A stretch of 64,000 bases of DNA from the IMG/VR virus record IMGVR_UViG_3300035703_000003, one strand, 5' to 3'. The position numbers and the translations under genes are program-made. The stretch's first letter is position 1. Every line of letters begins with the position of its first letter. A model generated the notes under the pieces. The model was not told where the DNA came from and made no database searches. It worked only from the letters and a program-made list of their open reading frames with translations. The stretch is from a virus. Its lineage: Duplodnaviria; Heunggongvirae; Uroviricota; Caudoviricetes. Of this stretch, positions 20,139 to 61,283 are shown piece after piece.

Positions 20139-20681
20139 TTAAATGCCTGCGAGTTTTTTAAGGTAATCTAATCCTTCATTTGTTGCGCCTAGGTTATCCA
20201 TTACTTGTTTAACCATTATGCTAATATCACTTGAGCCGAGTTCTTCTGCATCATCGTGAAATGATGCAACATCGTCTATTGCTGCTTCTACACGATCTAA
20301 GCCATATTGTGTTAGAAGATCTGCCATATTGTATTTTACACTTAGCCTCTGCATGATTGCATCTTTAACTGGGTTGTCTTCTTCGGGGTATGGTGTTCCG
20401 ACAGCGCCCATAAACATACCGCCTTCACCTTCTGATGTATTTTCAACTGATTCTTCTTGTGAGTCTAGGTGCGCTCTTGCACCCATATCTGCTTCGTCGA
20501 TTGCGCTGTATACTGCGTCTAATGCTGTTTTAATATCGTTTAGCCAGGCTGGGTCGCCACCAAGTTCGTCAATCGATCTCCACAGTGCGCCGTTTTCTCT
20601 AACAACGCTGGAATACTGATCAATTGTCTCTCTCATTTTATCAAAAGTGTTTGCAATTTTCTGTTCCGACATATTATGCAA
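20139..20681 (-). CDS. Hypothetical protein with C-terminal LDYLKKLAGI motif (putative head-internal protein)
   Basis: 180 aa. Its C-terminal motif is shared with the 20674..21606 product and with the scaffold protein. Confidence 0.55.
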   Translation of the reverse strand: MHNMSEQKIANTFDKMRETIDQYSSVVRENGALWRSIDELGGDPAWLNDIKTALDAVYSAIDEADMGARAHLDSQEESVENTSEGEGGMFMGAVGTPYPEEDNPVKDAIMQRLSVKYNMADLLTQYGLDRVEAAIDDVASFHDDAEELGSSDISIMVKQVMDNLGATNEGLDYLKKLAGI

Positions 20682-21606
20682 CTCCTGCTAATTTTTTAAG
20701 ATAATTCAATGATTCGTTTGCCTTTGTTTCTTCTTTATCTTTAGCCGCTTTTTTCATCGGCTCCTTCTTATCCCCATCGCCATCAATGTCAATATAATCT
20801 GGTTTTGCTGCTTCGCCAACCTGTTTTTTATCTTTTGCTGCCTTTTTCATTGGCTCTTTTTTGTTGCCATCTTTGTCTATATCAAGGAAGTCTGGTTTTG
20901 CGCTTGCTTCATTAGTTTTTTTGTCAGCGTAATAGCCGATACCACGCTTTCTCATTAGATTTTTTTCTATCCATCTATATGCGTCGTAGTAATAGCTATT
21001 ATCACCACGCTCGCCCTGTGACTGGGCTAAAGCGTCTAGATGGTCATACAAGAAATCAATGAAATCATCTGAATATCTATTCCAGTCAATCTTGTCAATA
21101 TTACTCCAGTTGTTATCAATGCCCTCCGGTGGATCTTTCTCCATTAGATCGGATAATATATCATAATGATCTAATTCATTGATACCTTCTTCGTTAACTG
21201 CTTTTGCAATATCATGTGCTTTTTTAATTGTTGATTTCTTAAGTGGTGGTTCATCACCTGTTGATTTCATTGCCTGTGCCATGCCAACTGCATATGGATT
21301 TTTTGCCTTTTCTGCAAATGCTTTGTATGATTCTGCTACATCCTCAACTGCATAATCTGGATAAATGTCCTCGTCTACAGTTACATGATCGCCTCTTGCT
21401 TTTAAATAACGGCGTAAGCTAGTATCACTAACACTGCCTAGTGTGCTAATGCCGTCTGGAAATTCTGCTGGGTTTGGTTCTGTTGTAGCTTCATCAAAGC
21501 CTGCGCCCTCTGATTCTCCCATCCCGTCACCGCACGATGGTTCACTGCTTACTTGTTGTGATTGAACAGCGATGCCTGCTAATTTTAATAGATCCATTAA
21601 GTCCAT
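20674..21606 (-). CDS. Hypothetical protein with tandem KPD(F/Y)(L/I)DIDxDGxKKEPMKKAAKDK repeats and C-terminal LNYLKKLAGVA motif
   Basis: 310 aa. Two near-identical 25-aa repeats (DxDxDG-like) near the C-terminus. Confidence 0.55.
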   Translation of the reverse strand: MDLMDLLKLAGIAVQSQQVSSEPSCGDGMGESEGAGFDEATTEPNPAEFPDGISTLGSVSDTSLRRYLKARGDHVTVDEDIYPDYAVEDVAESYKAFAEKAKNPYAVGMAQAMKSTGDEPPLKKSTIKKAHDIAKAVNEEGINELDHYDILSDLMEKDPPEGIDNNWSNIDKIDWNRYSDDFIDFLYDHLDALAQSQGERGDNSYYYDAYRWIEKNLMRKRGIGYYADKKTNEASAKPDFLDIDKDGNKKEPMKKAAKDKKQVGEAAKPDYIDIDGDGDKKEPMKKAAKDKEETKANESLNYLKKLAGVA

Positions 21607-21607
21607 T

Positions 21608-22105
21608 TTATTTTACCTTATACTCTTTTGACAACTCAGTTTTTGGTAAGTTTTTTAAAAACTTGTTAACAAATCCATTGCCATAATAATCATCATGCTT
21701 TACTTTTGCAGAATCACTATAGTCTGCATCCGCTAACACGCTTTTTGAATCTGCAGGCTCTTCTTGAACTGCACTAATATTTTCATCTTCTAGTTTGTTA
21801 CGAACTAGAATTGCTTGCATTGGCAAGCCGGTTGCTTTTGAAATCTCTTCATGAAGAACATTACTTGTTACCGGTAACTTTGCTGTAATATCAAATATAT
21901 AAACTTCTGCAGGGCCCCATTCCGCAAAACCATACGGAGCCTTTTGCATAATAGTTTTTTTCGGAGCGCCTACGCTCTCAACGTTATACTTTAACAAATG
22001 TTGTTCTAACTTGTCAAGTTGTTCACTTGACATTTCGACTACTGTGCGAATTCTAAATTCGTAGCTTTTTTCATTTTCTGCCAAATAATGTTTTAGACTC
22101 TTCAT
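21608..22105 (-). CDS. Hypothetical protein
   Basis: 165-aa ORF, translationally coupled. Confidence 0.5.
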   Translation of the reverse strand: MKSLKHYLAENEKSYEFRIRTVVEMSSEQLDKLEQHLLKYNVESVGAPKKTIMQKAPYGFAEWGPAEVYIFDITAKLPVTSNVLHEEISKATGLPMQAILVRNKLEDENISAVQEEPADSKSVLADADYSDSAKVKHDDYYGNGFVNKFLKNLPKTELSKEYKVK

Positions 22106-30881: not shown

Positions 30882-31240
30882 TAACTATTTTCAAGTTTTT
30901 CGATAATCTTTTTTTCTCTGATGTATTCTGCATAACGAGTTCGACGACCGTCTTTGTCAGAACACCAGTCTTTAACACGCTGATAGCTACCGATCGAACT
31001 CTCGGGCATGTTTACAACAACAGTATGAGCAATATCTGCCAAATTCTCTCGGTTCCATGTATCTGCACGGCCCGCAGCAAGATACAAGTCATTTGCCAAA
31101 ACGCTTGTCAAAAAGCCGCCAGGTTCGAACCCATGAATAAGATAGTTTTCCACAGCTTCATCAACATAGTTATTACCAAGCGTAAAATCTATATATTTCA
31201 TTTGCGGTCTCCTTGACGTTACAATAAGACAGTAATACAT
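30878..31240 (-). CDS. Hypothetical protein (true start probably the internal Met, MKYIDF...)
   Basis: 120-aa ORF. Its 5' end overlaps the promoter, which suggests a shorter real protein. Confidence 0.4.
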   Translation of the reverse strand: MYYCLIVTSRRPQMKYIDFTLGNNYVDEAVENYLIHGFEPGGFLTSVLANDLYLAAGRADTWNRENLADIAHTVVVNMPESSIGSYQRVKDWCSDKDGRRTRYAEYIREKKIIEKLENSY

Positions 31241-31294
31241 ATTGGTTTTGAAGTCAAGAGAAAAGGGCCCGTAGGCCCTAATCCTTTTTAATTA

Positions 31295-32704
31295 TTACTT
31301 TGCTGGTGTAGCAGCAATAGTCGGGTCAACTTGCAGATCCTTTGCAGTCTTAACCATCAGCATCTGCATGAAAGTATCAACAGTGCCAAGTGCATTTCCA
31401 GCTGAACCGTTTTCTCCGCCGATTACAGTAGCAGGAACATTGATTCTAGCAGCCGCATCTGCCCAAACTTTCTGTGCTTCTGTCCATGCAGCTAGTTTTT
31501 GTGCTAGAGCACCATCAGCAAGTAGAATTGCTTCTTTTGCGTAGGCTTCAGCATCAGCAGCAACAGTTACAGCTTCAGCATCAATTCGGGCTCGGTCTAG
31601 ATTGATTGCAGCCGTTTGCTTGGCAATTTCTGCTTCTTCACGAACACGCTCTGCTTCGATTAGTGCCAACTTCTTGGTAGTTTCAGCATTAGTAGTCTTT
31701 TCAATCTGCTCAACCTTTGCTTCTGCTTGACGCTTGGCAATGTCAGTTTCACCTTGTTGGATCGCAAGCAAACGCTGTTCTTCTTGTTCTAGACGCTGTT
31801 CACGTGCCACAACTCGGCGGCTTGCAGCTTTTTTACGTTCGCCAATTTGACGTTCGTATTCGTCGTCAGGATCGATGTTTTCAAGAATAGCACTTGCTAC
31901 AGTAACGCCAATTTCAGTAAAGTCATGCGGTGTACGAACATCATTGCCGTTTGCGTCAGTAATTTTCTCCATCAATACTTTGCGAACTTCAGTGTCACCA
32001 ACTTCGCTAGTATCTTGTGCAGCATCACTATCACTAGCAGCAACACGATTTCGAATTACACCGCCAGCTTGGTTAAGACTGATCTGTCGAACCTGGGCAC
32101 GACCTTTTTCAATAGCATCTTTGAATTCGCTTTTGAACTGGTCACGCTTACCACCCGAGTAGTATTCTTCCATGGTGAACATGTTAGATACTGAGTCAAG
32201 CGATGCAGTAACAGCAGGCTTTAGAGTAGTATTGATTAGACGCTCTGGAGTTCGGAAAGTGCGAGCCATTTCTAGGAATTGCGATTGTTCCTGCGGAATG
32301 CCAAACCGTGTAGTTTGTGTTACATCACCGGTCCAGTTGTCTGCAAGTCGAACACGATATGGTTCAGCAATCGAACCTTGAAAGGCTGTGCCAGAATTTT
32401 CACCTGTAGCATCGAGTGTGTGTGCTACAGTAATATAATGTGGCCATGCAGTGCTATTACCCCAACCTGCAAAATACCAACCAGTTTCACAAGTCGAAGT
32501 TTCGTTGCCAAAAATAGTACGAACATGTTGACAGAAGCCAGCATCGTTATAATTAAAAGTACCCCAAAGTGCAGCAACAACGCCAAGCACACCAGTTGCA
32601 GTGCTGACAAGAGTGCGAACAGGACGTAGTTCTTCCGCTGTAAGAACAGCACGAATGACAAAAGCACTGATTACAAGAATAAGACCAAGAATAAGACCAA
32701 ACAT
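31295..32704 (-). CDS. Membrane-anchored SPFH/band-7-like protein with long C-terminal coiled coil
   Basis: 469 aa. N-terminal TM helix (ILGLILVISAFVIRAVL) and an E/A/K/Q-rich coiled coil reminiscent of HflK/C or flotillin. Domain call is by composition and architecture only. Confidence 0.35.
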   Translation of the reverse strand: MFGLILGLILVISAFVIRAVLTAEELRPVRTLVSTATGVLGVVAALWGTFNYNDAGFCQHVRTIFGNETSTCETGWYFAGWGNSTAWPHYITVAHTLDATGENSGTAFQGSIAEPYRVRLADNWTGDVTQTTRFGIPQEQSQFLEMARTFRTPERLINTTLKPAVTASLDSVSNMFTMEEYYSGGKRDQFKSEFKDAIEKGRAQVRQISLNQAGGVIRNRVAASDSDAAQDTSEVGDTEVRKVLMEKITDANGNDVRTPHDFTEIGVTVASAILENIDPDDEYERQIGERKKAASRRVVAREQRLEQEEQRLLAIQQGETDIAKRQAEAKVEQIEKTTNAETTKKLALIEAERVREEAEIAKQTAAINLDRARIDAEAVTVAADAEAYAKEAILLADGALAQKLAAWTEAQKVWADAAARINVPATVIGGENGSAGNALGTVDTFMQMLMVKTAKDLQVDPTIAATPAK

Positions 32705-42100: not shown

Positions 42101-45100
42101 AGATGTCACTGTTTGATCTGTAGATAGTATACCTATAGCTATATAAGAACTAGCGACAATCCCGCCGCCAGCAACGTTTTGGAAATTCAACTGTCCGGCA
42201 CCGTTAGTTACAAGAGCCTGACCAATGGATCCGTCTGTTGTAGGCCATTTAATTGAGTTAATATCAACACCGCCGGTACCCGAACGAATTGCTACAGATG
42301 AAGTGCTGTTAGTGCTACCAATAGTAACAGCGGTCACACCACTAGTGGTCGAGCCGGTTGCAATGTTAACGGTTTTGGTTCCTGATGTATTTGCACCAGT
42401 CGCAATGTTAAGTGTATGAGCACTAGTGCTAGGATCTATTGTCATAGTTCCTGTTTGACTAGTACCGCCGACAGTTAGTGTTCCGCTAGTTAATGCGTTT
42501 GCAAAGCTGATGTTAGTAGTTGTGTTACCACCTAGTAATGTGGTTGCAACGTTACCTGCGCTAATGTCGCCGCCACCTACAAATAAGTCGCCTCCTATAC
42601 CAATACCACCTGTTACTATTAATGCACCAGAACTAGTGCTTGTAGAGTTAGTTGCGTTTGTTATAGAGATCGCAGTTGCAGTAGTTGCACCACGACCAGT
42701 GACAGACGATAATGTGTCGCTTTCTGCAAAAGTATTTGTAATTCTGATAGCATCACTGGCTGCATCAACGTCAATATTGATACCTGAACCACTTACAAGT
42801 GTTAGTGTGTCACCTGTCGCATCTGCTACTGCGCTACCTGTTCCTGCCCAGGTGTAACCGCTATCAGTATCTGTTACAGTAATAGTTCCAAAGTCTGAAC
42901 TTTGGCTTGTTAAGTATGTTGCTGTAGTAACCGCAGTTACGTGACCCATTTCATCAACAGATATACTTGCTATACCTGCAGATCCTTGGCTACCGCTTAA
43001 TGTCGATGTGTCTGCGTGAGCGAATGTAATTGTATCGCCCGATTCTGCAATTGTTAAGCCATAAGTTGTTCCAGTTGCACCTACTGCTAGAATTATGTCA
43101 TCTGTTCCGCTACCACTGCCGCCCGCTGTTAAACGAATAATCTCACTGTATATGTCGCCCCCTGCTTCGGTGCTTACACTGTAAGTTGTGTTAGTGTTAG
43201 TGACTGTTTCTGATCCAGTTGTATACGCTGTAACGTGTCCAAACGTATCAAATGTTAGACCTGTAACATATGTTCTAGAAGTTGCGGTTAAGTTTGCTGC
43301 AGAACTAGTATCTGCGTGAGCAATAGTTGCAGCGGTTCCTTCGCCTGCCGATGCGCTTATTGTAAGACCGCTTGTTCCTGTTTGAACTCCCGGAGTTCCG
43401 TCTGCAAGAGTTGCAACATAGTTACCAGTTGTATCTGTTCCAAGAGCAACACTATTTGCAGCAATAGTAGCAGTGATTGTTATATCAGCACTTCCGTTAA
43501 ACGAAGCAGATCCACTTAAATCACCGCCGAGTGAAATTGTTCTTGATGTTGCAAGTGTTGTTGCTGTAGTTGCGTTTCCACTAAGTGCCGCAGTGATAGT
43601 TCCTGCTGCAAAGTTACCACTACTATCACGAGCAACAACTTTTGATGCTGTATTTGTAGTAGTTGCGTCGACTGCTAGCGTTAGCCCGGCGCCTTCACTT
43701 CCGCCATTACCGCCAGTGATATATGAGCCGTTTGTAATACTTGCTACGTAGTTACCGGTTGTATCTGTTCCTAGCGCAACGCTATCTGCTGCAATAGTTG
43801 CTGTTAATGTTACGTTAGCACTTCCGTCTATACTTACGTTACCAGATAAATCGCCGGCTAATGTGATAGTTCTAGCTGTTGTCCAACTTGCTGCAGAACC
43901 TGTTATGCTTGCAACATCAAGTATTCCTGTTGTTCCGCTAAACACTTCACTTGTATTAGTTGCATCTGGAATAAAAGTAAATCGACCTGTGCTATCATCA
44001 AATCCAAAGAAACCTACCTTTGCTGCACTTCCATTGTGCCAACGGAATTCGATACCACGATCTTTATTATCATCGGTACTAGGTGCAGTGTCGCCACCTA
44101 ATGTAAGTATCGGATCATCTAGTGTTACGGTTGTGCTATTAACTGTAGTTGTAGTTCCATTTACAGTCAAATTACCAGTTACTGCTAAATTGTTATTAAC
44201 TGTGACTGTGCCACCAGATGCACTACCCAAGTTTATGTTAGTTGTTGAGCCAGATGCACCGCCTGTTCCTATGTTAACAGTTTTAGTAGTTGCGTTTGCA
44301 ACTGCGCCAGTTGATATATTAGTTGTACTTGCTGCAGTGCTGTCGTAACCTAAGTTAAGTGTTGTAGTTGCACCAAATGCGTTAACTGTTGTAGCAGTTG
44401 TATCAAATAATCCCATTGTTGCACTTGCTGCAACTATACTTGTAGTAAACGACGGACTAGTGCCAAATACTAATGCACCACTGCCAGTTTCATCACTAAT
44501 TACACCGGCTAATTCAGAGGATGAAGTTGCAGCAAAAACTGAAAGTTTATTTGCAGTGACAGCTAACGTGCCGCTTGCAGGAACAGTTACCGATGACCCG
44601 CCAGCATCTGCCGTTAATGTAATATTTCCTGTGTTCAGAGTTATAGTTCTGCTACCGTTGTTAACACCGGTTCCACCATATGTTGGGCTAATAATGCTGC
44701 CATTCCATGTTCCACTAGTAACAGTTCCAACAGTTGTAGCAGCGGCGGAATTAACAGCCGCAGTTGTAACAATTTCAGTTCTTACGTTTGCAAGTGTTTT
44801 TGGTCTAATTGCACCATCACTGGCTATTTCCACATAGTAATGTGTTGCAGCGGTTGTAGTATCTGAAGCCGATGACGTGATAGTTCCTGCACTAAAGTTA
44901 CCACTTGAGTCTCTTGCAACTATCGCACTATTTGTGTTTGAACTTGTAGCAGTGGTTGCAGAATTTGATACTTTACCTGCAGTCGAAATAGTTGCTAGTT
45001 TAGTATCGGCTATTGCTGCACTTGCGTTAATATCTGCGTTTACAATCGAATCAGCAGTGATGGCTGCTGATATTGCAATATTAGCACTACCATCGAATGA

Positions 45101-47171: not shown

Positions 47172-50087
47172 TTATGCTTGTGCTTCTGACCATCTTAGCA
47201 ACACACTTGCTCGTGCTGTACCTGTTGTTGTTCTTACGTTTATAGCTAGAATATCAGGACCGTCTGGATATTTGTAATCACCCCCTAACGGCGCTCCTGT
47301 TAATTCTTTCAATCTAGACAAGTCGATTAATCCGTCTGTTGCACCGTCTGTTGTCGACGGTGCTGTAAACGCAAAAACTTGTTCTCCGGGCAATGCTGCG
47401 CTACCAGTACTCCAAGTTACACTTGTTGCAATCTGTGCAAAGCTAGGCTGGCCACCGACTGATTCTGTGTTAAGTGCAGACCATGTTGCGTTACTAAAAT
47501 TCTTAGGATTTAATATACCTTCGATAACAGTTGCTCCCGAAGATGTACCAGAGCTAACTGCAGTACTAAGTGCTTGTAATAACAACTGACTTCTATTTAA
47601 TAAATCTTTTGCACCTAGTTGTCCTACTGCGCTGTTTGCCACGCTAGGTGCAAGTCTTATTAAGAAGAATGTTTGTGTTGTTGTGCTTATGTTAACATGA
47701 GTGCGCTGATAGTTAAAGAAGTATCCACGGTCTTCATCATATCCGCCATCTGCAATTAATGCACTACCCCAGTGTGTGAGAGTTGGACTACAAGTGTTAC
47801 TAATAATAATAGCACCTGTATTTGCAGTGTGTGTTGTTGCACTTCCCGCTGTCAAGTTGTTTATATTACCTTGTTGATATTGCACTAACGTAGCTGCTCT
47901 AGTACATCCGGTGAAATTTCCTGGGCCTGTGGTTGTACTTCTGCCAGTATATGAAACGATTTCGTTATCTATATACAATGTGCCAACATCAGGGAATAGC
48001 GTTAAATCTGCTGCCGGGACCGTAGTTTGAGATCCATTCATACTAGCTGTTAAGTATGTGCTAGGACTATCATTCTCGATACTATAACGAATAGGCAAGT
48101 TACCACTTCTCATATATGCTTCGTCATTAATATTGTTATTTTTAAATCTGTGAGCCATTACCCAATGACCATCACTTCCTCTAGCCATGAAGTCAATATA
48201 ACCTGCACCATACCAGCTATATTGAATACCCATCATTTGCATTTTATTTAAATCGATGGTGTAACCACTTGGACCTGTACCGTCCATATTATCTATATTG
48301 AAATCACCTTGTTTAACTCTAAGTTCTTCTACAAGAGATACACGAACCCCGCTAGCTGCAATACCCCTATAGTCCGGTGTTACAAATATGTTAGTATCGT
48401 CGTACACTTGAGTCACGAAGTGAATCATACCCCTAATAACAATACGGTCACCCACTCGTAATTGTTGTGTAAATCGTGTGCCGTCGCCGACTACTAAGTT
48501 GTCGTTAGGGTTAACAGTAACCGTTCCTGCAGTTTGAAATGTACTACTGCGTCTTACACAATACAAATCGATTCCGTTGAATTCCCAGAATATACCGTTT
48601 TGATCGTCAAAAACTCCAGCACGAACTGCAGCACCTTGCCAATTTTTGACATATATTTTTGTTTTACGATCTAACGCCGGTGTAGCACTACCAAGACTTG
48701 TTGTTGCAGTAACAGTAAATGTATAGTCGTCGACAATACTAGCAACTGTATAAGTTCCGTTATACCCACCTGTAGTGACACCTTGCAATTCAATTGTCGA
48801 TCCTGCCTGTAATCCATGATCTATAGCATCTGTTTCAATAGTTATAGTAGATCCAGAACTTGTGCCGCTTGCTGAAACTGATATAATACTATAATTTGGT
48901 TTAAATAAGGTACCTGTTGACCATACATATCCTTTCCCCGACTGATATCTGAAATACTTTTTAGTTTGTCGAACAACTGCAGCGCCGTATGTTGGTGTTT
49001 TAGTAGATAAAATAACACCGCCATCCATTGGTCTGTGCAAAATTGTTGCGTTTGACTGTACGTGTAATGTCACACTAGACGGACTGCTTACTGCACCGCC
49101 TGCTCTTGCGAGATATGTTAATGATGTTAAACTAGGTGTTGATAACACAACAAACGGGCCAGATGCTAATGCAGCATTAGTTCCCGAACCGACAGTAACG
49201 TGTATTAATGTTCCAGGTATTAATCCATGGGGTCCTAAGAAGTTTAATGTAATAGTACTAGGGTTGCTACCGTTGCTAGATGCACCGTTATTAGGAACGC
49301 TTGCACCGTTATAAAATTCTCCACGTTTTACTAACGTTTCGTCTGTTTTTAAACTTTGGCCGTTTGACGTTCCTACTAAGCCTCTAGCAAAATATGTTAC
49401 ACTAGTACTAGAAGGAACGCTAAACACTACAAAGTTACCGTCGGCACGACTAAATCCGGATATACCTGAATTTAGTCCGCTTACGTTCACTACTGCGCCA
49501 ACTGCCATGCCGTGTGTAGTGGTAAATGTAACAGTAATCAAACTATTAGAACTACTAGTAGTTGTATAATTTGTAGTGATGGTTGATACTTCTAAGTCAA
49601 TACCTGGCAATTCATACGCACCTGGATAACCTCTTACTGTTCCATACCCTGCCCACTTGGTTGGCTGAAGACCATATTCAAAGTCAGCGTCAATTAGTGA
49701 TTGCGGGTTAGATACTCTCATACGGTCAATTGCGTCTGTACCAAATCCCCAGGGTTTGATCGACATTGCTTCGTGATCTTTGCTTTCTAGATAGATAGAC
49801 AACCTGTCAGTTGAGCTCATTGTGCTAGTATCTGCTGCAAGAGTTAGTGTAGTGTATCCGTCTGTCTTGTATGATATACTAGGAAATACTGTTCCGTAAT
49901 TGCCTGATGTAAATGCAGTTGTTGTTCCGGCAAAATCACTATCTGCAAAATTGTAAATTATAACGTTATCAGTTGTGTTAGTTATAACTAAAAAGTCTTC
50001 TAATACATATCTTCCCGGTATTATAATTGTGCCGGAGCCAGCGGCTGCGGGAGAAAATACATATTCACTTATTCGTTTCTTTGCCAT
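47172..50087 (-). CDS. Large structural protein (971 aa), tail fibre or baseplate-associated
   Basis: Long beta-rich S/T/G/N-rich ORF within the fibre operon. Confidence 0.6.
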   Translation of the reverse strand: MAKKRISEYVFSPAAAGSGTIIIPGRYVLEDFLVITNTTDNVIIYNFADSDFAGTTTAFTSGNYGTVFPSISYKTDGYTTLTLAADTSTMSSTDRLSIYLESKDHEAMSIKPWGFGTDAIDRMRVSNPQSLIDADFEYGLQPTKWAGYGTVRGYPGAYELPGIDLEVSTITTNYTTTSSSNSLITVTFTTTHGMAVGAVVNVSGLNSGISGFSRADGNFVVFSVPSSTSVTYFARGLVGTSNGQSLKTDETLVKRGEFYNGASVPNNGASSNGSNPSTITLNFLGPHGLIPGTLIHVTVGSGTNAALASGPFVVLSTPSLTSLTYLARAGGAVSSPSSVTLHVQSNATILHRPMDGGVILSTKTPTYGAAVVRQTKKYFRYQSGKGYVWSTGTLFKPNYSIISVSASGTSSGSTITIETDAIDHGLQAGSTIELQGVTTGGYNGTYTVASIVDDYTFTVTATTSLGSATPALDRKTKIYVKNWQGAAVRAGVFDDQNGIFWEFNGIDLYCVRRSSTFQTAGTVTVNPNDNLVVGDGTRFTQQLRVGDRIVIRGMIHFVTQVYDDTNIFVTPDYRGIAASGVRVSLVEELRVKQGDFNIDNMDGTGPSGYTIDLNKMQMMGIQYSWYGAGYIDFMARGSDGHWVMAHRFKNNNINDEAYMRSGNLPIRYSIENDSPSTYLTASMNGSQTTVPAADLTLFPDVGTLYIDNEIVSYTGRSTTTGPGNFTGCTRAATLVQYQQGNINNLTAGSATTHTANTGAIIISNTCSPTLTHWGSALIADGGYDEDRGYFFNYQRTHVNISTTTQTFFLIRLAPSVANSAVGQLGAKDLLNRSQLLLQALSTAVSSGTSSGATVIEGILNPKNFSNATWSALNTESVGGQPSFAQIATSVTWSTGSAALPGEQVFAFTAPSTTDGATDGLIDLSRLKELTGAPLGGDYKYPDGPDILAINVRTTTGTARASVLLRWSEAQA

Positions 50088-51216: not shown

Positions 51217-54200
51217 TTATGCAAGGAGAAGAGTCTGAACTATTTTATATTGTGTGCTATTGGTACTTACTTGTGTTGCTAATATTCTAACATTTCCACT
51301 ACTAATGTCAACATCATATGCTGCTAAATCACTAGCGCCTGTGTTAACCATAGCATATTGTGTTGCACTAGCTGTAGTTCCGTTGTGAACAATTAACATT
51401 TCTGTTATGCTTCTTGCACCGGATACTGTATCTCTAGCTTGTATAACAACTTTGCCGCCGCCAAACGTAGTAGCACTGAATGATGCAATTGATGTTTGTG
51501 TAACGGTTGCTAATGTAGCAGTTGCACTATCTAAATTATATGTGCTATCAATTCTGATTGCACCGTCAACATGTAACTTTTCTGCTGGTGTTGAAGTATT
51601 AATACCAACATTGCCGTTTAATAATGTGTAACCTGTTCCAGTTGGAGTTAATGTTATATTTTGGTCAGAACCACCGGCTGTAATAGTAATTGCGCTCGAA
51701 CCGGTTATATTACCTACACCAGTTAAATTACCCGAAACATTTGCACTACCATCGAAGTTTTGACCCCACAGAGTTCTTGTAGTTTGTAGTGTAGTTGCAG
51801 TTGTTGCGTTTCCGCTTAACGCTGCAGTAATAGTTCCGGCAGTAAAGTTACCGCTTGAATCCCTGGCAACTATAGCACTGTTTGTATTTGAACTAGTCGC
51901 TGTTGTTGCAGAGTTGGATACTTTACCCGCAGTTGATATTGTTGCTAGTTTTGTATCAGCAATTGCTGCAGCGGAATTTATGTCTGCGTTTACAATTGAA
52001 TCAGCAGTGATAGCCGCTGATATTGTGATATCGGCGCTTCCATTAAACGAAGTAGCAGTTCCTGTGACATCTCCACTTATCGCAATGTTTCTTGCTGTAG
52101 TTAGTGTGTCTGCATTACCTGCTGTTGCAACGTTTAGATTTGAAACTCGAGTCGTTGATGTAATTACAAATGGCGCTGTGCCAGTTGCAATGGTGTTTGT
52201 TAATTGGTTGTTCATGTTAAGTGTAGTTACACTAGTAAGAGAACCTGTAACGTTAGCAGAACCATTGAAGTTTTGACCCCAAAGTGTTCTAGTAGTTGTT
52301 AGTGTTGCTGCACTACCTGTTGTGTTCTGGTTACCAGTAGTATTAACACCTGGCAAATCAATATTAGCCGATCCATCAAAACTTACACCGCCAATATTTC
52401 TTGCAGTTTGTAATGTTGTTGCTGTAGTTGCATTTCCACTTAATGCAGCGGTAATTGTTCCTGCAGTAAAGTTACCACTTGCGTCTCTAGCAACAATAGC
52501 GTTAGCTGTGTTTGCGTTTGTTGCTGTTGTTGCCGTGTTGGATACTTTACCTGCAGTTGAAATCGTTGCTAGCTTTGTATCAGCAATTGCTGCAGCGGAA
52601 TTTATATCTGCGTTAACAATTGAATCAGCAGTGATAGCTGCTGATATTGTAATATCAGCGCTTCCATTAAACGAAGTAGCAGTTCCTGTGACATCTCCAC
52701 TTATCGCAATGTTTCTTGCAGTTTGTAGTGTAGTTGCAGTAGTTGCGTTTCCACTTAATGCAGCGGTAACTGTTCCTGCGCTGAAGTTGCCGCTCGAATC
52801 TCTAGCAACTATAGCACTATTTGTATTTGAACTAGTAGCAGTAGTAGCGGAGTTTGATACTTTACCAGCTGTTGATATTGTTGCTAGCTTTGTGTCAACT
52901 ATACCTGCTGCGGAATTTATATCTGCGTTAACAATTGAATCAGCAGTGATAGCTGCCGATATAGTGATATCGGCGCTTCCATTGAACGACGTTGCAGTTC
53001 CTGTCACATCTCCGCTTATTGCAATATTTCTTGCTGTTGCTAATGTTGTTGCAGTAGATGCATTACCTACTAGAGCACCCCTAAAGTTTGCTGCTTGAAT
53101 ATCAGCAAGAGCAAAAGAGGCATGACTAGTATCAATAAATGGACTTACATCTGGCTCTGGGGTATATCCTTTAAATACTTTAAAATATCCATCACTTGCA
53201 TCCCTAAAGAAGCCGCCGTGTTGATAAGAAGTATCATAATATCCAAATGCAAAACCTAAATCCGGATTTGCATTTGTTCTTGCTCGTGCTGTTCCGCCCG
53301 AAACATATGAACCAGTTGCAGTATTTGCTATAGTAAACGAATTCGTTGCAACTGCAGTTATAGTTTGATTTGATAAGTTATACGCAGATGGATCTACACC
53401 GATAATACTTACAGACATACCCGGTGTATAATTATGAACTTCGTTGGTGGTATAAACAACGTTTGTGCCATCTCCTACTACATTGGTTATGGTTGTTAAT
53501 ATCGCCTGATTCATGTAGATCATATTATCAGTTACTGATAAATTAGCAGCGGTAGTGGTGGTAGTTGTACCACCTACAGACAAGTTACCGTCTATAGTGA
53601 CATTACCATCGAACAATCCATTATTAAATGTCACGTTTGCAGTAGTCGAAACGTCTTGTCCGATTGCAATTGTTGGAGTTGCACCTTCACCTGTGTTGTT
53701 TGATAATGTTACACCCGTGCCTGCTACAAGACTTGCTACGTAGTTACCAGTTGTATCAGTTCCAAGAGCAACACTATCTGCAGCAATTGTTGCAGTGATA
53801 GTAATATCAGCCGACCCATTGAACGAAGCAGACCCGCTCAGATCTCCTCCAAGGGAAATAGTTCTTGATGTCGCAAGTGTAGTTGCTGTAGTTGCGTTTC
53901 CACTTAGTGCCGCAGTGATAGTTCCTGCTGCAAAATTACCACTACTATCTCGAGCAACAACCTTTGATGCTGTATTTGTGCTAGTTGCGTCGACAGCCAG
54001 TGTTAGTCCAGCGCCTTCGCTTCCGCCATTGCCACCAGTGATGTATGATCCGTTTGTAATACTTGCTACGTAGTTACCAGTTGTGTCGGTGCCAAGAGCA
54101 ACACTATCTGCTACAATAGTTGCAGTTAATGTTACGTTAGCACTTCCATCAATACTCACATTACCTGATAAGTCACCACCGAGTGTTATTGTTCTACTAT

Positions 54201-57033
54201 TTGCCCATGAACTAGCCGTCGACGCATTACCGCTTAGTGCCGCTGTAATTGTTCCTGCAGTAAAGTTACCGCTTGAATCCCTGGCAACTATCGCACTATT
54301 TGTGTTTGAACTTGTAGCAGTAGTTGCAGAATTTGATACTTTACCTGCAGTTGATATTGTTGCTAGTTTTGTGTCAGCTATTGCTGCACTCGAATTTATG
54401 TCTGCGTTTACAATCGAATCCGCAGTAATACCTGCTGATATTGTAATGTCAGCACTTCCGTTAAACGAAGTAGCAGTTCCTGTGACATCTCCGCTTATTG
54501 CAATAGTTCTTGCTGTTGCAAGTGTTGTTGCTGTAGATGCATTTCCGCTTAGTGCTGCAGTGATAGTTCCTGCTGCAAAGTTACCGCTGCTATCACGAGC
54601 AACAACCTTTGACGATGTATTTGTGCTAGTTGCGTCAACTGCTAGCGTTAGTCCAGCGCCTTCACTGCCGCCGTCACCGCCGGTAATATATGAGCCATTG
54701 GTGATACTTGCTACGTAGTTACCGGTTGTATCTGTTCCAAGAGCAACACTATTTGCTGTTATTGTTGCGGTTAATGTTCCGTTTGCTAAATCAGTTAGAG
54801 TTACGCTTCCAGACAAGTCTCCTGCAAGTGTAATAGTAGGATCTGGTTTATTTAAAATATCAGACCAATCTACATTTGCATCTATTGTTCCTTTTGTTCC
54901 ACTAAACACTTCGCTCGTGTTAGTTGCATCTGGAATAAAAGTAAACTTACCTGTGCTATCGTCGAAACCGAAGAATCCTATTTTAGCACTAGTTCCGTTA
55001 TGCCAACGGAATTCTATACCTCTGTCTTTGTTATCGTCTGAGGATGGAGAAGTATCTCCACCTAATGTAATAACAGGATCGTCTATTGTGGTTACAGTTG
55101 AATTAACTGTGGTTGTAGTTCCGTTAACTGTTAAGTTTCCTGTAACAATCAAGTTGTTACCAATTGTTACGTCGTTGGGCAATCCAACAGTTATAGTTTG
55201 GCCACTAGCAACTGCTTCTATTTCATTTGTTGTTCCGGCAATAGTTAAAGTTTGTGTGCTTAAATTAACAGTCCCAGTTCCGGAAGTTCCTGCAATGCTT
55301 AATGTTTGTCCAGAAGATGCAGAGTCAACGTATGCTTTAATGCTTTGTTGAGTAGCAAGAGCAGTTGCACTATTGCTTGCCATGTTATCTTCATCTAAGA
55401 TACTATTAATAAGTGTAGTAGAATTGATTGTTAAACTAGAAGATACAGTCAATGCACCAGTTAATGCAAGTGTAGATCCGTTAAATGTTAGATTAGCACT
55501 GTCTTGTAGTTCACCACTACTACCAGCATAAACTACACGGTTTGCTGTTAGATCAGTTACGCTAGCACTTGCTAATGTAGTTTGACCAGTAACGCCTAAT
55601 GTTCCTGTAATCGCAGTATCACCAGATGCAACAGCTACAGTAAACTTATTTGTAGCAATTGCAAAAGTAGTATTGTCAAAAGTTAAATTTGCATTATCTT
55701 GTAATCTGCCTGCAGTTCCGACATATACTAATCTATTCGAAACAAGGTCTGATACTTTTAAATTTGCAACAGTTGTAGCACCATTGACATCTAGTGTGCC
55801 AGCAACTAATGTGTTACCGGTTGTAGCGTTTACTGTAAACTTGTTTGTAGCAACATCGAAGTTTCCGTCTACACCTGTTGCGCCAGTGACATCTAATGTG
55901 CCGGCAACTGCAGTATTACCAGTTGTAGCGTTAACTGTAAACTTGTTTGTAGCAACATCGAAGTTTCCATCTATGCCGGCTGCACCAGTGACATCTAATA
56001 TTCCAGCAATTGCTGTATTACCCGATGTAGCATTTACTGTAAACTTGTTTGTAGCAATGTCAAAGTTTCCATCAATACCTACTGCGCTAGTAACATCTAG
56101 TGTTCCAGCAATTGCTGTATTGCCTGAAGCGGCATTTACTGTAAACTTATTTGTAGCAACATCAAAACTTCCGTCTACACCTAATGATCCGGTTACATCC
56201 AATGCACCTGCAATTGCAGTATTACCTGATGAAACGTTTACTGTAAATTTGTTTGTAGCAATTGCAAATGTAGTTGCATCAAATGTTAAATTAGCATCGT
56301 CATCTAACTCGCCATCAACGGTTGCTATAATAATTCTATTACTAGTTAAGTTACTAACTTTAAGTTTACTTGCAATTACATCTCCGGTTCCGTTTGGAGT
56401 TATATTGATATTACCGTTTGTATTTGTGCTAGTGATAGCATTACCGTCAATTCTAATATTATCAATATTAAACTGTCCAGTAACATTAGCTGTTCCTGCT
56501 AATGCTAAAGTTGAACCGTTAAATGTTAAATTTGCGCTGTCTTGTAATTCTCCACTAGTTCCTGCATATGTAATACGATTATTTGTTAAATCGCTTATGT
56601 TAGCACTTGCTAATGTAGTTTGACCGGTAACGCCTAGTGTTCCTGCAATTGCAGTATTACCGTTAGAATTAGTTATTACAAACTTGTTTAGTAATGCACC
56701 GTATCTGAAATCACCGTTTTCGTCTATTTGTAATCTATGACTTCCATTTGTGTAAAAGTCTAAATCATTGTTATTAGCACCTGGAGCAGTTTCAGCAATA
56801 ATATACGTGTTGCCATCAACGTCTTTAACACCGCCAAGACTTGTCCAGTTTGTGTTGACATATCCTTCAAACGATTGTAGAGTAGAGTTAAATCTTATTT
56901 CACCTGAGTTAGGAGTATTTGGACGTTCAAACGTTGTTCCTGACGGAATTCTAATACTACCAGTATTATTAATAGTTATAGTCTCGGTATTAGAGCTAAT
57001 TCTATTTCGTTGGTGGTCAAAATTTAATGCCAT
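51217..57033 (-). CDS. Giant tail fibre protein 2 (1938 aa), repeat-rich
   Basis: Six approximately 34-aa N-terminal repeats (TNKFTVNA(T/S)SGNTAIAG(T/I)LDVTG...GNFD(I/V)A). Shares the conserved IDDPVITLGGDTSPSSDDNKDRGIEFRWHNGTSAKIGFFGFDDSTGKFTFIPDA block and the ~100-aa tandem repeats with 39143..47161. Confidence 0.75.
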   Translation of the reverse strand: MALNFDHQRNRISSNTETITINNTGSIRIPSGTTFERPNTPNSGEIRFNSTLQSFEGYVNTNWTSLGGVKDVDGNTYIIAETAPGANNNDLDFYTNGSHRLQIDENGDFRYGALLNKFVITNSNGNTAIAGTLGVTGQTTLASANISDLTNNRITYAGTSGELQDSANLTFNGSTLALAGTANVTGQFNIDNIRIDGNAITSTNTNGNINITPNGTGDVIASKLKVSNLTSNRIIIATVDGELDDDANLTFDATTFAIATNKFTVNVSSGNTAIAGALDVTGSLGVDGSFDVATNKFTVNAASGNTAIAGTLDVTSAVGIDGNFDIATNKFTVNATSGNTAIAGILDVTGAAGIDGNFDVATNKFTVNATTGNTAVAGTLDVTGATGVDGNFDVATNKFTVNATTGNTLVAGTLDVNGATTVANLKVSDLVSNRLVYVGTAGRLQDNANLTFDNTTFAIATNKFTVAVASGDTAITGTLGVTGQTTLASASVTDLTANRVVYAGSSGELQDSANLTFNGSTLALTGALTVSSSLTINSTTLINSILDEDNMASNSATALATQQSIKAYVDSASSGQTLSIAGTSGTGTVNLSTQTLTIAGTTNEIEAVASGQTITVGLPNDVTIGNNLIVTGNLTVNGTTTTVNSTVTTIDDPVITLGGDTSPSSDDNKDRGIEFRWHNGTSAKIGFFGFDDSTGKFTFIPDATNTSEVFSGTKGTIDANVDWSDILNKPDPTITLAGDLSGSVTLTDLANGTLTATITANSVALGTDTTGNYVASITNGSYITGGDGGSEGAGLTLAVDATSTNTSSKVVARDSSGNFAAGTITAALSGNASTATTLATARTIAISGDVTGTATSFNGSADITISAGITADSIVNADINSSAAIADTKLATISTAGKVSNSATTATSSNTNSAIVARDSSGNFTAGTITAALSGNASTASSWANSRTITLGGDLSGNVSIDGSANVTLTATIVADSVALGTDTTGNYVASITNGSYITGGNGGSEGAGLTLAVDATSTNTASKVVARDSSGNFAAGTITAALSGNATTATTLATSRTISLGGDLSGSASFNGSADITITATIAADSVALGTDTTGNYVASLVAGTGVTLSNNTGEGATPTIAIGQDVSTTANVTFNNGLFDGNVTIDGNLSVGGTTTTTTAANLSVTDNMIYMNQAILTTITNVVGDGTNVVYTTNEVHNYTPGMSVSIIGVDPSAYNLSNQTITAVATNSFTIANTATGSYVSGGTARARTNANPDLGFAFGYYDTSYQHGGFFRDASDGYFKVFKGYTPEPDVSPFIDTSHASFALADIQAANFRGALVGNASTATTLATARNIAISGDVTGTATSFNGSADITISAAITADSIVNADINSAAGIVDTKLATISTAGKVSNSATTATSSNTNSAIVARDSSGNFSAGTVTAALSGNATTATTLQTARNIAISGDVTGTATSFNGSADITISAAITADSIVNADINSAAAIADTKLATISTAGKVSNTATTATNANTANAIVARDASGNFTAGTITAALSGNATTATTLQTARNIGGVSFDGSANIDLPGVNTTGNQNTTGSAATLTTTRTLWGQNFNGSANVTGSLTSVTTLNMNNQLTNTIATGTAPFVITSTTRVSNLNVATAGNADTLTTARNIAISGDVTGTATSFNGSADITISAAITADSIVNADINSAAAIADTKLATISTAGKVSNSATTATSSNTNSAIVARDSSGNFTAGTITAALSGNATTATTLQTTRTLWGQNFDGSANVSGNLTGVGNITGSSAITITAGGSDQNITLTPTGTGYTLLNGNVGINTSTPAEKLHVDGAIRIDSTYNLDSATATLATVTQTSIASFSATTFGGGKVVIQARDTVSGARSITEMLIVHNGTTASATQYAMVNTGASDLAAYDVDISSGNVRILATQVSTNSTQYKIVQTLLLA
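51800..54730 (-). repeat. Repeat copies in fibre gene 2 homologous to those in 39950..45360
   Basis: Antisense ORFs 51914..52276, 52322..53098, 53795..54073 and 54083..54718 encode peptides near-identical to antisense ORFs in the first fibre gene. Confidence 0.7.
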
Positions 57034-59002: not shown

Positions 59003-59018
59003 TGTAGTTTACAAACTA

Positions 59019-60176
59019 TTAGCTGAAGCTTAGGTTTGCAGTTGTAACAGCAATCTTGCTTAGGTAGTCTGCAGCGTTACCAAGAGATGAAGCTTGGTTG
59101 CTTAGTTCTACATAACCATAACGTGTCATGAAGCTAACTACTGGCTCGAATGTGCTTGGATCTAGAACAGTTCCTGAGCTCATTAGAGGAATGTATGGGC
59201 AATAGAATGCCGCTGCGTCAGTTTCGGTTGAACCCTTATAACCAACTAGGACGTCATCGTTTGCTGCATACTGGTTTACATAAACCTTCATAGTGCCATT
59301 TAGAGTACCGACAAACTTGGTGTTAGTTGGTGCTTCGAATGGGCCTTCAGTTGTTCTTGCGAAAGCTGAAGTAGTTGCTGACTGTAGTACAGTTAGAACA
59401 GTTGGGCTAACAACTACCCAGTTACCTGCACCACGACGTGTGCGGGCTGCGATAGTGTTTGCATTCTTGTTGATTAGAACTGCTAGTGCAGCATGTTCGT
59501 CACCAACGAAAGTTGCAGTGCCGCTTACGCCAGCTTGGTTGTAAGTATCAGCTGCAGTGCCTGCTAGTGAACTTAGGCTTGCAATGATTTCCTGATCGAT
59601 TTCAGCAGTGATTTCTTGTGCAAGTGCTTGCATGATTTCTGCTTCAACGTCTAGGCCGTGCATTGCGTTAGCATCTTGAGCAGCTTCAAAAGTCCAACGT
59701 GCTGATAGCTTACGTGTTTTAGCTTCAACAGTTTGCTTTAGAACTTGGATGCTTAGTTTCTTACCAGCAACACCTTCTAGTGCGCTTGTAGAATCCGCAC
59801 GGTTAGTGCTTGCGTTACCTGAGTAACCAGTTGCAATTGCGAATGGGCTTAGAGCTTCATCGCCTGCAGTTGCTGAGTCAAATGTTTCAGCGTAACGAAC
59901 ACGTAGAGTGTGGATTTGGCCTACTGGGCCAGTCATTGGCTGCACACCAACGATCTCGTTGGCGATAACAGTTGGCATTACACGACGGATAACTGGAAGG
60001 ATAACTTTGTTAAGTGTAGCAATGTTACCAGCTTGTGTTGCACCTGAGGATGCAGATTCTGCAAGGTATCTCTTGGTATTCTCAAGAGTTGTTTCCATTA
60101 CTTTTTTCTTTGTTCCAGTAAGACCATCGGTAAGGGCTTCTTTGGTAGCTGACCAATTTTCAAATAGGTTGCTCAT
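59019..60176 (-). CDS. Major capsid protein (gp23-like)
   Basis: IANEIVGVQPMTGPVGQIHTLRVRY matches T4 gp23 IAFDICGVQPMNSPTGQVFALRAVY. C-terminal VYVNQYA...VGYKG...FYCPYIP...FEPVVSFMTRYGY matches T4 VYIDQYA...VGYKG...YYAPYVA...FQPVMGFKTRYGI. Confidence 0.9.
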   Translation of the reverse strand: MSNLFENWSATKEALTDGLTGTKKKVMETTLENTKRYLAESASSGATQAGNIATLNKVILPVIRRVMPTVIANEIVGVQPMTGPVGQIHTLRVRYAETFDSATAGDEALSPFAIATGYSGNASTNRADSTSALEGVAGKKLSIQVLKQTVEAKTRKLSARWTFEAAQDANAMHGLDVEAEIMQALAQEITAEIDQEIIASLSSLAGTAADTYNQAGVSGTATFVGDEHAALAVLINKNANTIAARTRRGAGNWVVVSPTVLTVLQSATTSAFARTTEGPFEAPTNTKFVGTLNGTMKVYVNQYAANDDVLVGYKGSTETDAAAFYCPYIPLMSSGTVLDPSTFEPVVSFMTRYGYVELSNQASSLGNAADYLSKIAVTTANLSFS

Positions 60177-60188
60177 TTTTCGGTCTCC

Positions 60189-61283
60189 TTAGTTTAGTCC
60201 GGCTAGTTTGCGAAGGTTTACAATATTGGCATCGACTGCAGCTTCTGCTACACTTTGCTTATTACCTGTGACTTCTTTTGCAGATTCGCTCAGGACCTTC
60301 TTAGTTTCTACTTTTTTAGTATCTTCCCTCAATACAGATGGTAGATACTTGTTGAATGCACTTTGCAGTTCTTTTGTTTGAACGCTTTCAAGTAATGCAC
60401 CCATTATTTCTTTATGCTGCTTTGAAAGTGGAGACATCATTTCATTCATGATGGCTTTTCTTTCTGATTTGTCTGCTACAATACGAGCATTACGTGCTGA
60501 TTCTTGTAGTTGAACATCTTTTGCAGCGATAGTTTTTGAAGCTTCATTTAGTTTGCTGCTTAGTTCGTTGACTTTTTTGTTTAGTTTTGCAGTTTCAGTG
60601 CCTTCGTTAAGCATACTGCTCATAAACTCAGCTGCAAATGTTTCAAATATCTTACGGCCGAAAGTGTTTTGCTTTGCGACATGGATATCTTCACGTAGTA
60701 CAGTAAGTTCTTTCTTGATAGTTGATTCAAGAATAGAATTTACTTTCTTTGCAGCGTTTTCAACAAACTCACGCTTTGCAGACTCGATTACAGCCTTGCC
60801 TTCTTTTATCATTTTGACTTTAGCTTCAACTAGTGAGCGTTTGTCTTCATGAAACTCGTTTAGCTCTTTGGTAAGTTGCTCAAGAACAAAACCCTCTAAT
60901 GTGGTCATATTTGCTTTTTGAGCGTTACGATCTTCGCGAAGTTCGGAAACTTCTTTACGAAGTGCTTCCATTACAAACCCATCAAGAACCTTTGCGTGTT
61001 CCATCATATGCTTGCGGTAAGCTACACGATCTTCAGCTAACTTGGATTTGTCTGCTTTGAACTCGTTAAGTTCTGCAGCAATGACATCACCTAGCATCGA
61101 ATCCATTGCTTCTACAATTTGCGACTTGTCATTTTCATAACGTTGTGCAAATTCTTCTCTAAGTTCTGCTGTGATTTGTTCACGTGCTTCACTTAGTTGT
61201 GCTTGCCATGCTTCGTTGATTGAAGATCTTACCTCTTCGGAGAGCGTCTTTGAGCTTAATAGTTCATCTATTGCGTGAGCCAT
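60189..61283 (-). CDS. Prohead scaffolding protein (gp22-like), coiled-coil, C-terminal LRKLAGLN
   Basis: 364 aa with all-helical, charged heptad-like composition, positioned between the protease and MCP genes as in T4. Confidence 0.6.
   Translation of the reverse strand: MAHAIDELLSSKTLSEEVRSSINEAWQAQLSEAREQITAELREEFAQRYENDKSQIVEAMDSMLGDVIAAELNEFKADKSKLAEDRVAYRKHMMEHAKVLDGFVMEALRKEVSELREDRNAQKANMTTLEGFVLEQLTKELNEFHEDKRSLVEAKVKMIKEGKAVIESAKREFVENAAKKVNSILESTIKKELTVLREDIHVAKQNTFGRKIFETFAAEFMSSMLNEGTETAKLNKKVNELSSKLNEASKTIAAKDVQLQESARNARIVADKSERKAIMNEMMSPLSKQHKEIMGALLESVQTKELQSAFNKYLPSVLREDTKKVETKKVLSESAKEVTGNKQSVAEAAVDANIVNLRKLAGLN

Follow-up and report, generated by a model that had tools for sequence, protein, structure and literature searches.

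A scaffold-tail module recurs on unrelated acidic proteins of a marine jumbo phage and its relatives and may be a shared head-incorporation signal

Both the presence of a scaffold-type capsid-binding tail on other proteins and the use of capsid targeting peptides are known principles of virus assembly. Here we describe a ten-residue module that stands at the C-terminus of the scaffold encoded by the virus record IMGVR_UViG_3300035703_000003, a 64-kilobase (kb) stretch of DNA with a 40% GC content (hereafter the window), and that recurs on two other proteins of this phage, a marine jumbo phage whose head and packaging core are of the T4 type. In herpesviruses (UL26/UL26.5) and in phage lambda (C/Nu3), the C-terminal tail with which the scaffold binds the major capsid protein (MCP) is also present on another head-assembly protein, and both thereby gain entry to the procapsid. 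Encapsulin cargo-loading peptides are short and usually C-terminal, combine a small residue or glycine with a hydrophobic core, are joined by a flexible linker and dock their cargo inside an HK97-fold shell. The T4 capsid targeting sequence (CTS) is strictly N-terminal, is approximately 10 residues long, terminates in a gp21 site and is absent from the scaffold gp22, whose end we take to be ...AKVASRF, without the module; the T4 internal proteins that it marks are basic. The CTS is the sole conserved feature of these diverse proteins and loads them into the scaffolding core (PMC3012670). In Staphylococcus phage 80alpha, the last 16 residues of scaffold gp46 comprise an amphipathic helix of 11 residues and a hook of 5 residues (RIIK), which bind the N-arm and a cleft of the HK97-fold capsid protein, and SaPI1 CpmB carries an almost identical module that competes for the 80alpha scaffold's capsid site (PMC5644958).

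An earlier note on this DNA, made from the sequence alone, had pointed out a common C-terminal end on the scaffold and on two proteins encoded next to the gene for the large terminase (TerL), here called w310 and w176. The module has the consensus Phi-x-x-Phi-(R/K)-(R/K)-L-(A/S)-G-Phi, where Phi is a hydrophobic residue, followed by 0-3 residues. The carriers and their copies are:

60189-61283, minus strand: scaffold, 364 amino acids (aa), phrog_10922, coiled-coil type (PHROG E-value 7.7e-91 over residues 4-345)
60195-60224, minus strand: scaffold tail module IVNLRKLAGL, aa 354-363, then N and the stop
20674-21606, minus strand: w310, a 310-aa acidic protein with a net charge of -20, mostly disordered in a low-confidence model, module at both ends
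21571-21600, minus strand: w310 N-terminal module LMDLLKLAGI, aa 3-12, sequence MDLMDLLKLAGIAV, overlooked by the earlier note
20680-20709, minus strand: w310 C-terminal module LNYLKKLAGV, aa 300-309, preceded by a conserved Glu-Ser
20139-20669, minus strand: w176, a 176-aa acidic protein with a net charge of -22, directly upstream of TerL, helical/disordered in a low-confidence model
20142-20171, minus strand: w176 C-terminal module LDYLKKLAGI, aa 167-176, up to the stop

The scaffold ends in ...NIVNLRKLAGLN and w310 in ...ESLNYLKKLAGVA, each followed by the stop codon. All three C-termini are as the earlier note wrote them, and the motif search that it proposed, made on the window, returned these three plus the additional N-terminal copy on w310: in a complete six-frame translation of the window, the pattern [LIVM]xxLAG[VILM] has four matches, all within 13 residues of a protein terminus, of which three are the C-termini of the scaffold, w310 and w176 and the fourth is residues 3-12 of w310. 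The tail ...GLDYLKKLAGI given for a '180-aa' protein is likewise correct; its length is not, as the likely start codon (ATG at 20669) gives 176 aa.

The closest experimental parallel is the pair 80alpha gp46 and CpmB: there too, the module lies at the extreme end of the scaffold and also on a different protein, with basic residues before the hook, which in our phage is a predicted one. Unlike that pair, the sequence is (R/K)(R/K)LAG-Phi rather than RIIK, and the second carriers are encoded by the phage and not by a satellite; they are acidic, probably disordered, have N-terminal or internal copies (up to three) and apparently stay in virions, and the MCP is here the presumed binding partner. 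The likeness to the T4 CTS, as found on IPI-III and Alt and the functional counterpart within T4-type heads, is that a short peptide is the only common feature of its carriers, in a phage with a gp20/21/22/23-type head and an L-x-E site in the MCP; unlike the CTS, the tag is the scaffold's own tail, can stand at any position and is carried by acidic proteins. In herpesviruses and lambda the sharing comes from nested in-frame genes and takes in the whole C-terminus, whereas here the genes are separate and non-homologous and the protease lacks the tail. Encapsulin peptides have a different consensus and serve a system with no scaffold, protease or DNA packaging, and no homology to them is implied.

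The recurrence of the module is not expected by chance. From the composition of the proteome (approximately 19,500 aa), 0.48 matches to [LIVM]xxLAG[VILM] are expected, and a looser pattern, Phi-x-x-Phi-x-x-[LIVM]-[AS]-G-Phi, gives five matches versus 0.81 expected, four of the five being the same terminal copies. When residues were shuffled within proteins, any 4-mer common to at least three C-terminal tails appeared in 0.12% of trials. Homology among the carriers was ruled out as an explanation, since an all-against-all blastp comparison of the scaffold, w310 and w176 showed no similarity beyond the module; the match between w176 and w310 consists of the last 13 residues only (77% identity). 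The Leu, Ala and Gly codons differ among the copies, and the MCP gene has its own TAAGGAG after the scaffold stop, which together indicate that it is the peptide that is selected, rather than a DNA element such as a Shine-Dalgarno sequence or promoter overlapping the gene ends. We are all but certain that the motif is a real, selected element. The w310 tail (GCAGGAG), alone among the copies, may double as the Shine-Dalgarno sequence of w176.

The window phage is distantly related to Pseudomonas PA5oct, Klebsiella RaK2/K64-1, coliphages 121Q/phAPEC6, Agrobacterium Atu_ph07 and Vibrio 2.275.O, with 68-71% by blastn over the protease and MCP genes. With the window scaffold as a tblastn query, 94 phage records were matched, 90 of them at a coverage of at least 80%. 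All seven cultured relatives examined have the tail feature: the scaffold of PA5oct ends in ...VEELRRLAGIK, that of Atu_ph07 in ...INDLKRLAGIKK, XacN1 in ...NMMKLAGIKG, Vibrio 2.275.O in ...LDRLTKIAGIRK, 121Q in ...LKELDVLSGINKK, K64-1 in ...LEELSILSGIIKK and SCTP-2 in ...TQMLINAGIKKN (the last residues being INAGIKKN). Many scaffold tails end in Lys-Lys.

Metagenomic homologues extend this observation. Among 120 close homologues of the scaffold (70-94% identity), the tail ...(I/L)(V/I)x(L)(R/Q)KLAG(I/L) plus 0-1 residue is present in all but one. An exhaustive HMMER search of 1.84 billion cluster representatives recovered 771 scaffold relatives, the best 150 of which (approximately 30-55% identity) were analysed. 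Among these 150, (A/S)-G-hydrophobic lies within the last nine residues in 121 (113 of the 134 that are full-length), and the strict ten-residue pattern fits 97. Anchored on the invariant Gly, the profile reads E/D at -9, I/L/V at -8, L/I at -5, R/K at -4 and -3, L at -2, A at -1 and I/L at +1, then 0-3 residues. The relative entropy is 2-5 bits at -8, -5, -2, -1, 0 and +1, making the tail the best-conserved part of the scaffold family, well above the protein body. The modules of the other two carriers of the window are conserved as well. In the w310 family, both the N-terminal MDLxDL(L/V)KLAG(I/L/V) and the C-terminal E-S-(L/I)-x-x-L-K-x-LAG(I/L/V) are kept around a middle of 183 to 522 aa, and residues L6, L9, A10 and G11 of the N-terminal module are invariant in the homologue alignment. 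In the w176 family, which also has a variable middle, ...NE(G/S)L(D/G)YLKKLAGI ends 24 of 27 members; two have variant tails and one has none.

The whole genomes of PA5oct and K64-1 were assembled from segments and scanned in six frames, and the phrog_14802 protein, a conserved neighbour of the motif-protein locus, was used as an anchor for finding that locus in further phages. Beside the scaffold gp153, PA5oct has clear copies on two proteins: gp203 (498 aa), encoded between the phrog_14802 homologue gp202 and TerL gp204, with an N-terminal MFNINDILRLAGVQAVKESE and an internal ...FESTLDEISKLAGISNVEES, and gp235 (208 aa), with ...KEIDRIKKLAGISNDSAVDES. In K64-1, a 304-aa acidic open reading frame (ORF; 31125-32039) contains both ...LARMMELAGQAEQ and ...EELKRMTHLSGIVTEDED. 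Two copies are found on 121Q gp560 (...LSRMLALAGQAER and ...FSRMLSLAGINEEE) and three on Vibrio 2.275.O gp389, and Atu_ph07 gp908, directly upstream of TerL, starts with MDIERLKILAGLENS / MDIERLKILAGL.... A second metagenomic lineage encodes, in the same slot before TerL, a protein with an internal ...MMMQILKLAGVQPV. Six lineages, among them Atu_ph07 and the P0221 lineage, have a motif protein as the neighbour of phrog_14802, of TerL or of both. The same peptide is thus present on the scaffold and on a non-homologous protein of one phage in the window phage, PA5oct, K64-1, 121Q, Vibrio 2.275.O and Atu_ph07, and the carriers in the relatives are acidic, probably disordered proteins. As judged from these proteins, the module is position-independent, often multi-copy and typically located within very acidic linkers. 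The C-terminal signal of the earlier note is too narrow, as N-terminal and internal copies occur as well, often two or three per protein.

Several of these carriers are associated with virions. PA5oct has 93 virion-associated proteins among 461 coding regions (PMC7318152), and its GenBank record flags the proteins of purified virions identified by electrospray ionization tandem mass spectrometry (MS). The flag is set for gp203 and gp235 but not for gp153, the absence being expected of a transient scaffold. The ten-residue pattern occurs in six annotated non-scaffold proteins of PA5oct (gp203, gp235, gp300, gp314, gp335 and the S21 homologue gp256), and five of the six are MS-flagged versus the background of 93/461 (binomial p = 0.0017), an enrichment that is inflated by protein length and includes gp300 and gp335, which may be chance matches in folded domains. 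In phAPEC6, gp267c, a near-identical homologue of 121Q gp560, was detected in virions by one peptide (4.9% coverage), and the scaffold remnant by two peptides, also at 4.9% coverage (PMC7247149). RaK2 ORF050, the homologue of the K64-1 ORF, and 121Q gp560 are structural by annotation. Virion MS thus places carriers in the virions of PA5oct and phAPEC6; these proteins have no detectable homology to w310 or w176 outside the motif, and presence of the latter two in virions is a prediction.

Virions of phAPEC6 and 121Q contain a radiation-sensitive inner body of 91 x 18 nm, seen by bubblegram, whose components in phAPEC6 are unassigned, none of its proteins resembling phiKZ inner-body proteins (PMC7247149). 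The likewise jumbo phages phiKZ and SPN3US package much internal protein that a gp21-like protease processes; the phAPEC6 proteins lack sequence similarity to those of the phiKZ inner body, and the lineages are different. We know of no shared scaffold-tail tag in phiKZ-type phages.

The hydrophobic residues at -8, -5, -2 and +1, together with basic ones at -4 and -3, fit an amphipathic helix, and a Gly with a hydrophobic residue after it often caps the C-terminal end of a helix. In AlphaFold2 models built from homologue alignments, which are of low confidence (mean pLDDT, the predicted local distance difference test score, of 51.5 for w176 and 45.2 for w310) and consist mostly of helix and disorder, the motif helix stops at Ala-Gly (helices 3-9 and 296-306 of w310, helix 147-173 of w176); in w310 the local pLDDT is higher at the motifs than in the flanking disorder.

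With respect to processing, an L-x-E|(S/N/T)-A site is conserved in the propeptide of 7/7 family MCPs, just before the conserved mature N-terminus (L-A-E|S in the window). It agrees with what we take to be the T4 gp23 site, and the specificity of the T4 protease is probably retained, to judge from this conservation. Glu is frequent just upstream of the module (E/D at -9 in 88 of the 121 scaffolds, and Glu-Ser before the w310- and w176-family tails), and V-x-E follows several internal copies (PA5oct gp203 and gp235, and the K64-1 ORF). The Glu residues beside modules mostly lack the hydrophobic P3 residue of the MCP site, and the carriers are Glu-rich, so that cleavage next to the tag is no more than a possibility. 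None of the window copies is an N-terminal leader of approximately ten residues ending in L/I-x-E of the T4 CTS kind: three of the four are C-terminal, and the N-terminal copy of w310 is followed by ...VQSQQVSSE-P, with no clear L/I-x-E site.

These observations are consistent with the following model. The module would form a short amphipathic helix that glycine and a hydrophobic 'hook' bring to a close, and the scaffolds of this jumbo-phage family would contact the procapsid through it. The copy at the extreme C-terminus would hold the coiled-coil scaffold at one defined place in the nascent head. The most likely place is the gp23-like MCP, at its inner face or its N-terminal propeptide; the scaffold core comes second. 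Unrelated acidic, probably disordered proteins with one to three copies, which in the window are the 310-aa and 176-aa proteins beside TerL, would occupy the scaffold's site and co-assemble as internal prohead proteins. The gp21-like protease would then degrade the scaffold and possibly strip the tags. That the module serves as a shared head-incorporation signal is the reading we favour, with reservations. The earlier note had likewise proposed co-packaging into the head through the shared tail; the conserved scaffold tail, the carriers in virions of relatives and the 80alpha precedent argue for this proposal, while its MCP partner, to which the scaffold core, the portal and the protease are alternatives, and the packaging of the window's own proteins stay at the level of prediction, and the trimming by the gp21-like protease that it added is plausible.

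A number of points weigh against this reading. Outside the motif, w310 and w176 have no homology detectable by blastp to the MS-verified carriers, including PA5oct gp203. Strict co-variation of the A/S position fails: K64-1 has LSGI in the scaffold and in one partner copy, but the 121Q scaffold has LSGI versus LAGI and LAGQ in gp560. A weaker correlation does favour the reading: a basic residue at -4/-3 is usual in both scaffold and partner of the window phage, PA5oct and Atu_ph07, and the basic pair is absent from both scaffold and partner copies in 121Q and K64-1. This correlation reflects a single phylogenetic split. SCTP-2, whose tail is the most divergent, adds no further test of co-variation, as no motif was found in the 50 kb scanned (100-150 kb, which holds baseplate and fibre genes). 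The protease must also enter the head and lacks the motif. The low confidence of the models, the length bias in the PA5oct enrichment and the thin detection of phAPEC6 gp267c count on the same side, as does the lack of any solved structure found among scaffold relatives; no family or PDB relative was found for w310 and no PDB relative for the scaffold, and the only solved relative of the MCP is T4 gp23.

The peptide could instead be a docking or recognition element for the gp21-like protease, marking substrates or recruiting the enzyme into the core. This would fit a protease with no targeting motif of its own, the fact that all clear carriers are expected substrates (the scaffold and acidic head proteins), the conserved upstream Glu, the V-x-E after internal copies and the T4-like L-x-E site kept by the MCP of the clade. 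We nevertheless consider it unlikely, because the MCP, which is the main substrate, does not have the motif, because the neighbouring Glu residues mostly have no hydrophobic P3 and Glu-rich sequences give such sites by chance, and because placement at the C-terminus with 0-3 trailing residues in hundreds of scaffolds suits an anchoring tail better than an exosite. Another explanation is that the carriers are accessory or secondary scaffolds and not cargo: they would compete for or share the scaffold site, help to set a very large T number or a transient core, and then be degraded. Multi-copy tags on long acidic disordered linkers (three on gp389, two each on gp560 and w310) do resemble multivalent cross-linkers, the very low MS coverage of phAPEC6 gp267c equals that of the scaffold remnant, and in 80alpha/SaPI1 the second carrier of the tail is a size-determining scaffold. 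This role is also doubtful, as PA5oct gp203 and gp235 and RaK2 ORF050 are recorded as virion proteins and the PA5oct scaffold is not, and the motif proteins lack a coiled-coil, scaffold-like architecture.

Two further explanations are very improbable. One is that the carriers have no common partner, the module being a generic helix C-cap, a C-terminal degron or a DnaK/Clp chaperone tag. L-x-x-L-A-G-Phi does fit a common helix C-cap, PA5oct encodes homologues of ClpX, ClpP, ClpA and ClpS, and isolated matches lie in one ATPase of PA5oct and in its ClpA. The pattern is however 4-6 times above expectation, clear copies are confined to termini and linkers of head-associated proteins, and the invariant Gly and a conservation over 150 divergent scaffolds exceed what helix capping needs. 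The C-terminal degron or Clp tag in particular is ruled out by the N-terminal and internal copies and by the Lys-Lys endings, which are unlike ssrA-type tags. The other is that w176 is the small terminase (TerS) and that the motif mediates terminase/portal interactions during packaging. The position of the w176 gene is like that in T4 gp16-gp17, genes for motif proteins immediately precede TerL in the window, PA5oct, Atu_ph07 and the P0221 lineage, and no TerS is annotated nearby. There is, however, no family, TerS or PDB match for w176 in PHROGs, Pfam (to an E-value of 5), NCBIfam or the PDB, even at relaxed thresholds, and a net charge of -22 suits DNA binding poorly. Moreover, PA5oct gp203 in the same slot is a virion protein by MS, the motif protein lies away from TerL in RaK2, 121Q and Vibrio 2.275.O, and the tail of the scaffold would be left unexplained.

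The other genes of the two modules in which the carriers lie are:

63037-63891, minus strand: gp20-like portal, cut by the window end
61925-62668, minus strand: 247-aa very acidic protein (32% Asp + Glu) between portal and protease, without the module; blast E-value 3.6e-20 to PA5oct gp151
61285-61923, minus strand: gp21-like prohead serine protease (Peptidase_S77; PHROG/Pfam), without the module
59019-60176, minus strand: gp23-like MCP (Pfam Gp23, E-value 4e-103)
21608-22105, minus strand: 165-aa phrog_14802 'virion structural protein', which lies to the left of the motif-protein locus and, being conserved, marks it in different genera
18528-20078, minus strand: T4-type TerL; likely start ATG 20078 (the ORF list has TTG 20093)

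PHROG and Pfam matches bear out the identities of the scaffold, gp21-like S77 protease, gp23-like MCP and T4-type TerL. The scaffold gene is flanked by those of the protease and the MCP, a position that it also holds in PA5oct, 121Q, Atu_ph07, K64-1, SCTP-2 and XacN1. At a distance of 40 kb downstream from the head module come, in order, a tail sheath, two tube proteins, a gp4-like head closure protein, phrog_16202, phrog_14802, w310, w176, a strong hairpin, TerL, a virion protein, gp32, UvsX and UvsY.

The 247-aa acidic protein is probably a prohead-core protein; its homologue PA5oct gp151 carries the virion MS flag. Its position recalls that of the T4 prohead-core proteins gp67/gp68. As it lacks the LAG module, not every acidic head protein uses the tag. 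The scaffold stop and the MCP start (60177-60191) are in-frame and four codons apart (TAA GGA GAC CGA AAA ATG), such that read-through of the stop would yield a scaffold-MCP fusion; the arrangement is probably a coincidence, with a chance of one in three. Between the w176 stop (20139) and the TerL ATG (20078) lies a perfect stem-loop, AGAGGCAGTG-TATTAA-CACTGCCTCT (20098-20123, minus strand; -22 kcal/mol, z = -5.1 versus shuffles), which is followed by a weak U tract and was missed by a simple terminator scan. It may be a terminator, an attenuator or an RNA-stability element that parts TerL expression from that of the upstream structural genes. The likely TerL start (ATG 20078) falls after this hairpin; the PA5oct orthologue gp204 (EST35_0204, MK797984.1 128846-130441) is annotated only as 'hypothetical protein'. 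Between the head and TerL modules, three giant ORFs on the minus strand (39143-47161, 2672 aa; 47172-50087, 971 aa; 51217-57033, 1938 aa) probably encode baseplate/fibre proteins, like the giant PA5oct gp128 and SCTP-2 genes 140/141.

The w310 protein is a mosaic of modules (at aa 86-147 and aa 230-295) that recur in numerous proteins of marine phages. Its module NPYAVGMAQAMKSTGDEPPLKKSTIKKAHDIAKA has 58% identity with gp114 of cyanophage S-RIM8, the gene for which sits between those of TerS and TerL. A link to the cyanophages was rejected: what S-RIM8 gp114 has in common with w310 is confined to the PYA(V/I)GMAQAMK...KKAH(D/K)IAKA module, and the LAG motif is missing from gp114. Two tandem EF-hand-like repeats, KPD(F/Y)(L/I)DID(K/G)DG(N/D)KKEPMKKAAKDK, with the DxDxDG calcium-loop pattern, are also present in w310. 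A split gene or frameshift, by which w310 plus w176 would correspond to PA5oct gp203, is unsupported, as many metagenomic contigs encode the two as distinct ORFs whose tails are both conserved.

A very large metagenomic family (L026 7574-8470, JGI Ga0222718_10000343; P0157-P0240) starts with MEMIDILSRLKQIQE..., an amphipathic leader ending in I-Q-E that resembles a T4-type CTS with a gp21 site, and the same proteins carry an internal ...EEASMMMQLLKLAGVQPV module. Its genes lie directly upstream of TerL in a T4-core lineage with a 1134-aa tail sheath. In 121Q, RaK2 and Vibrio 2.275.O, the motif-protein cluster is closely followed by an ATPase gene (121Q gene 563, phAPEC6 gp265c, Vibrio 2.275.O gp392, RaK2 ORF053; N4 gp24-like according to the RaK2 annotation), whose product is represented by six peptides in phAPEC6 virions. 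The PA5oct ATPase gp335 (EST35_0335, MK797984.1 234078-235193) is encoded elsewhere in the genome; it is MS-flagged and has an internal ...VSDILQLAGINKD match to the module.

The module peptide strings were not found in the searchable literature, where a string search gave only optical character recognition noise, and the PA5oct and phAPEC6 papers (PMC7318152, PMC7247149) do not mention a scaffold tail or targeting signal. What is new relative to the known principle is the sequence itself, its spread over hundreds of scaffold clusters or more, the way in which acidic proteins carry it at any position and in several copies, and the connection with the inner body. A broader proposal, which we put forward tentatively and would not yet rely on, is that the module is a portable head-addressing tag, usable at any position, across a large clade of T4-core jumbo phages, most of them uncultivated, that accounts for at least 771 scaffold clusters, and that its carriers are inner-body or internal proteins of 121Q/RaK2/PA5oct-type phages. 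If so, foreign proteins would be taken into jumbo-phage capsids by means of a tag of 12 residues, a use to which the T4 CTS is already put, and a regular-expression scan would list the packaged proteome of any member of the clade. If the narrower reading as a head-incorporation signal holds, the module would be the first sequence handle on the scaffold-head contact in RaK2/121Q/PA5oct-type phages, and would nominate PA5oct gp203 and gp235, 121Q gp560, RaK2 ORF050, w310 and w176 as internal or inner-body proteins of these virions.

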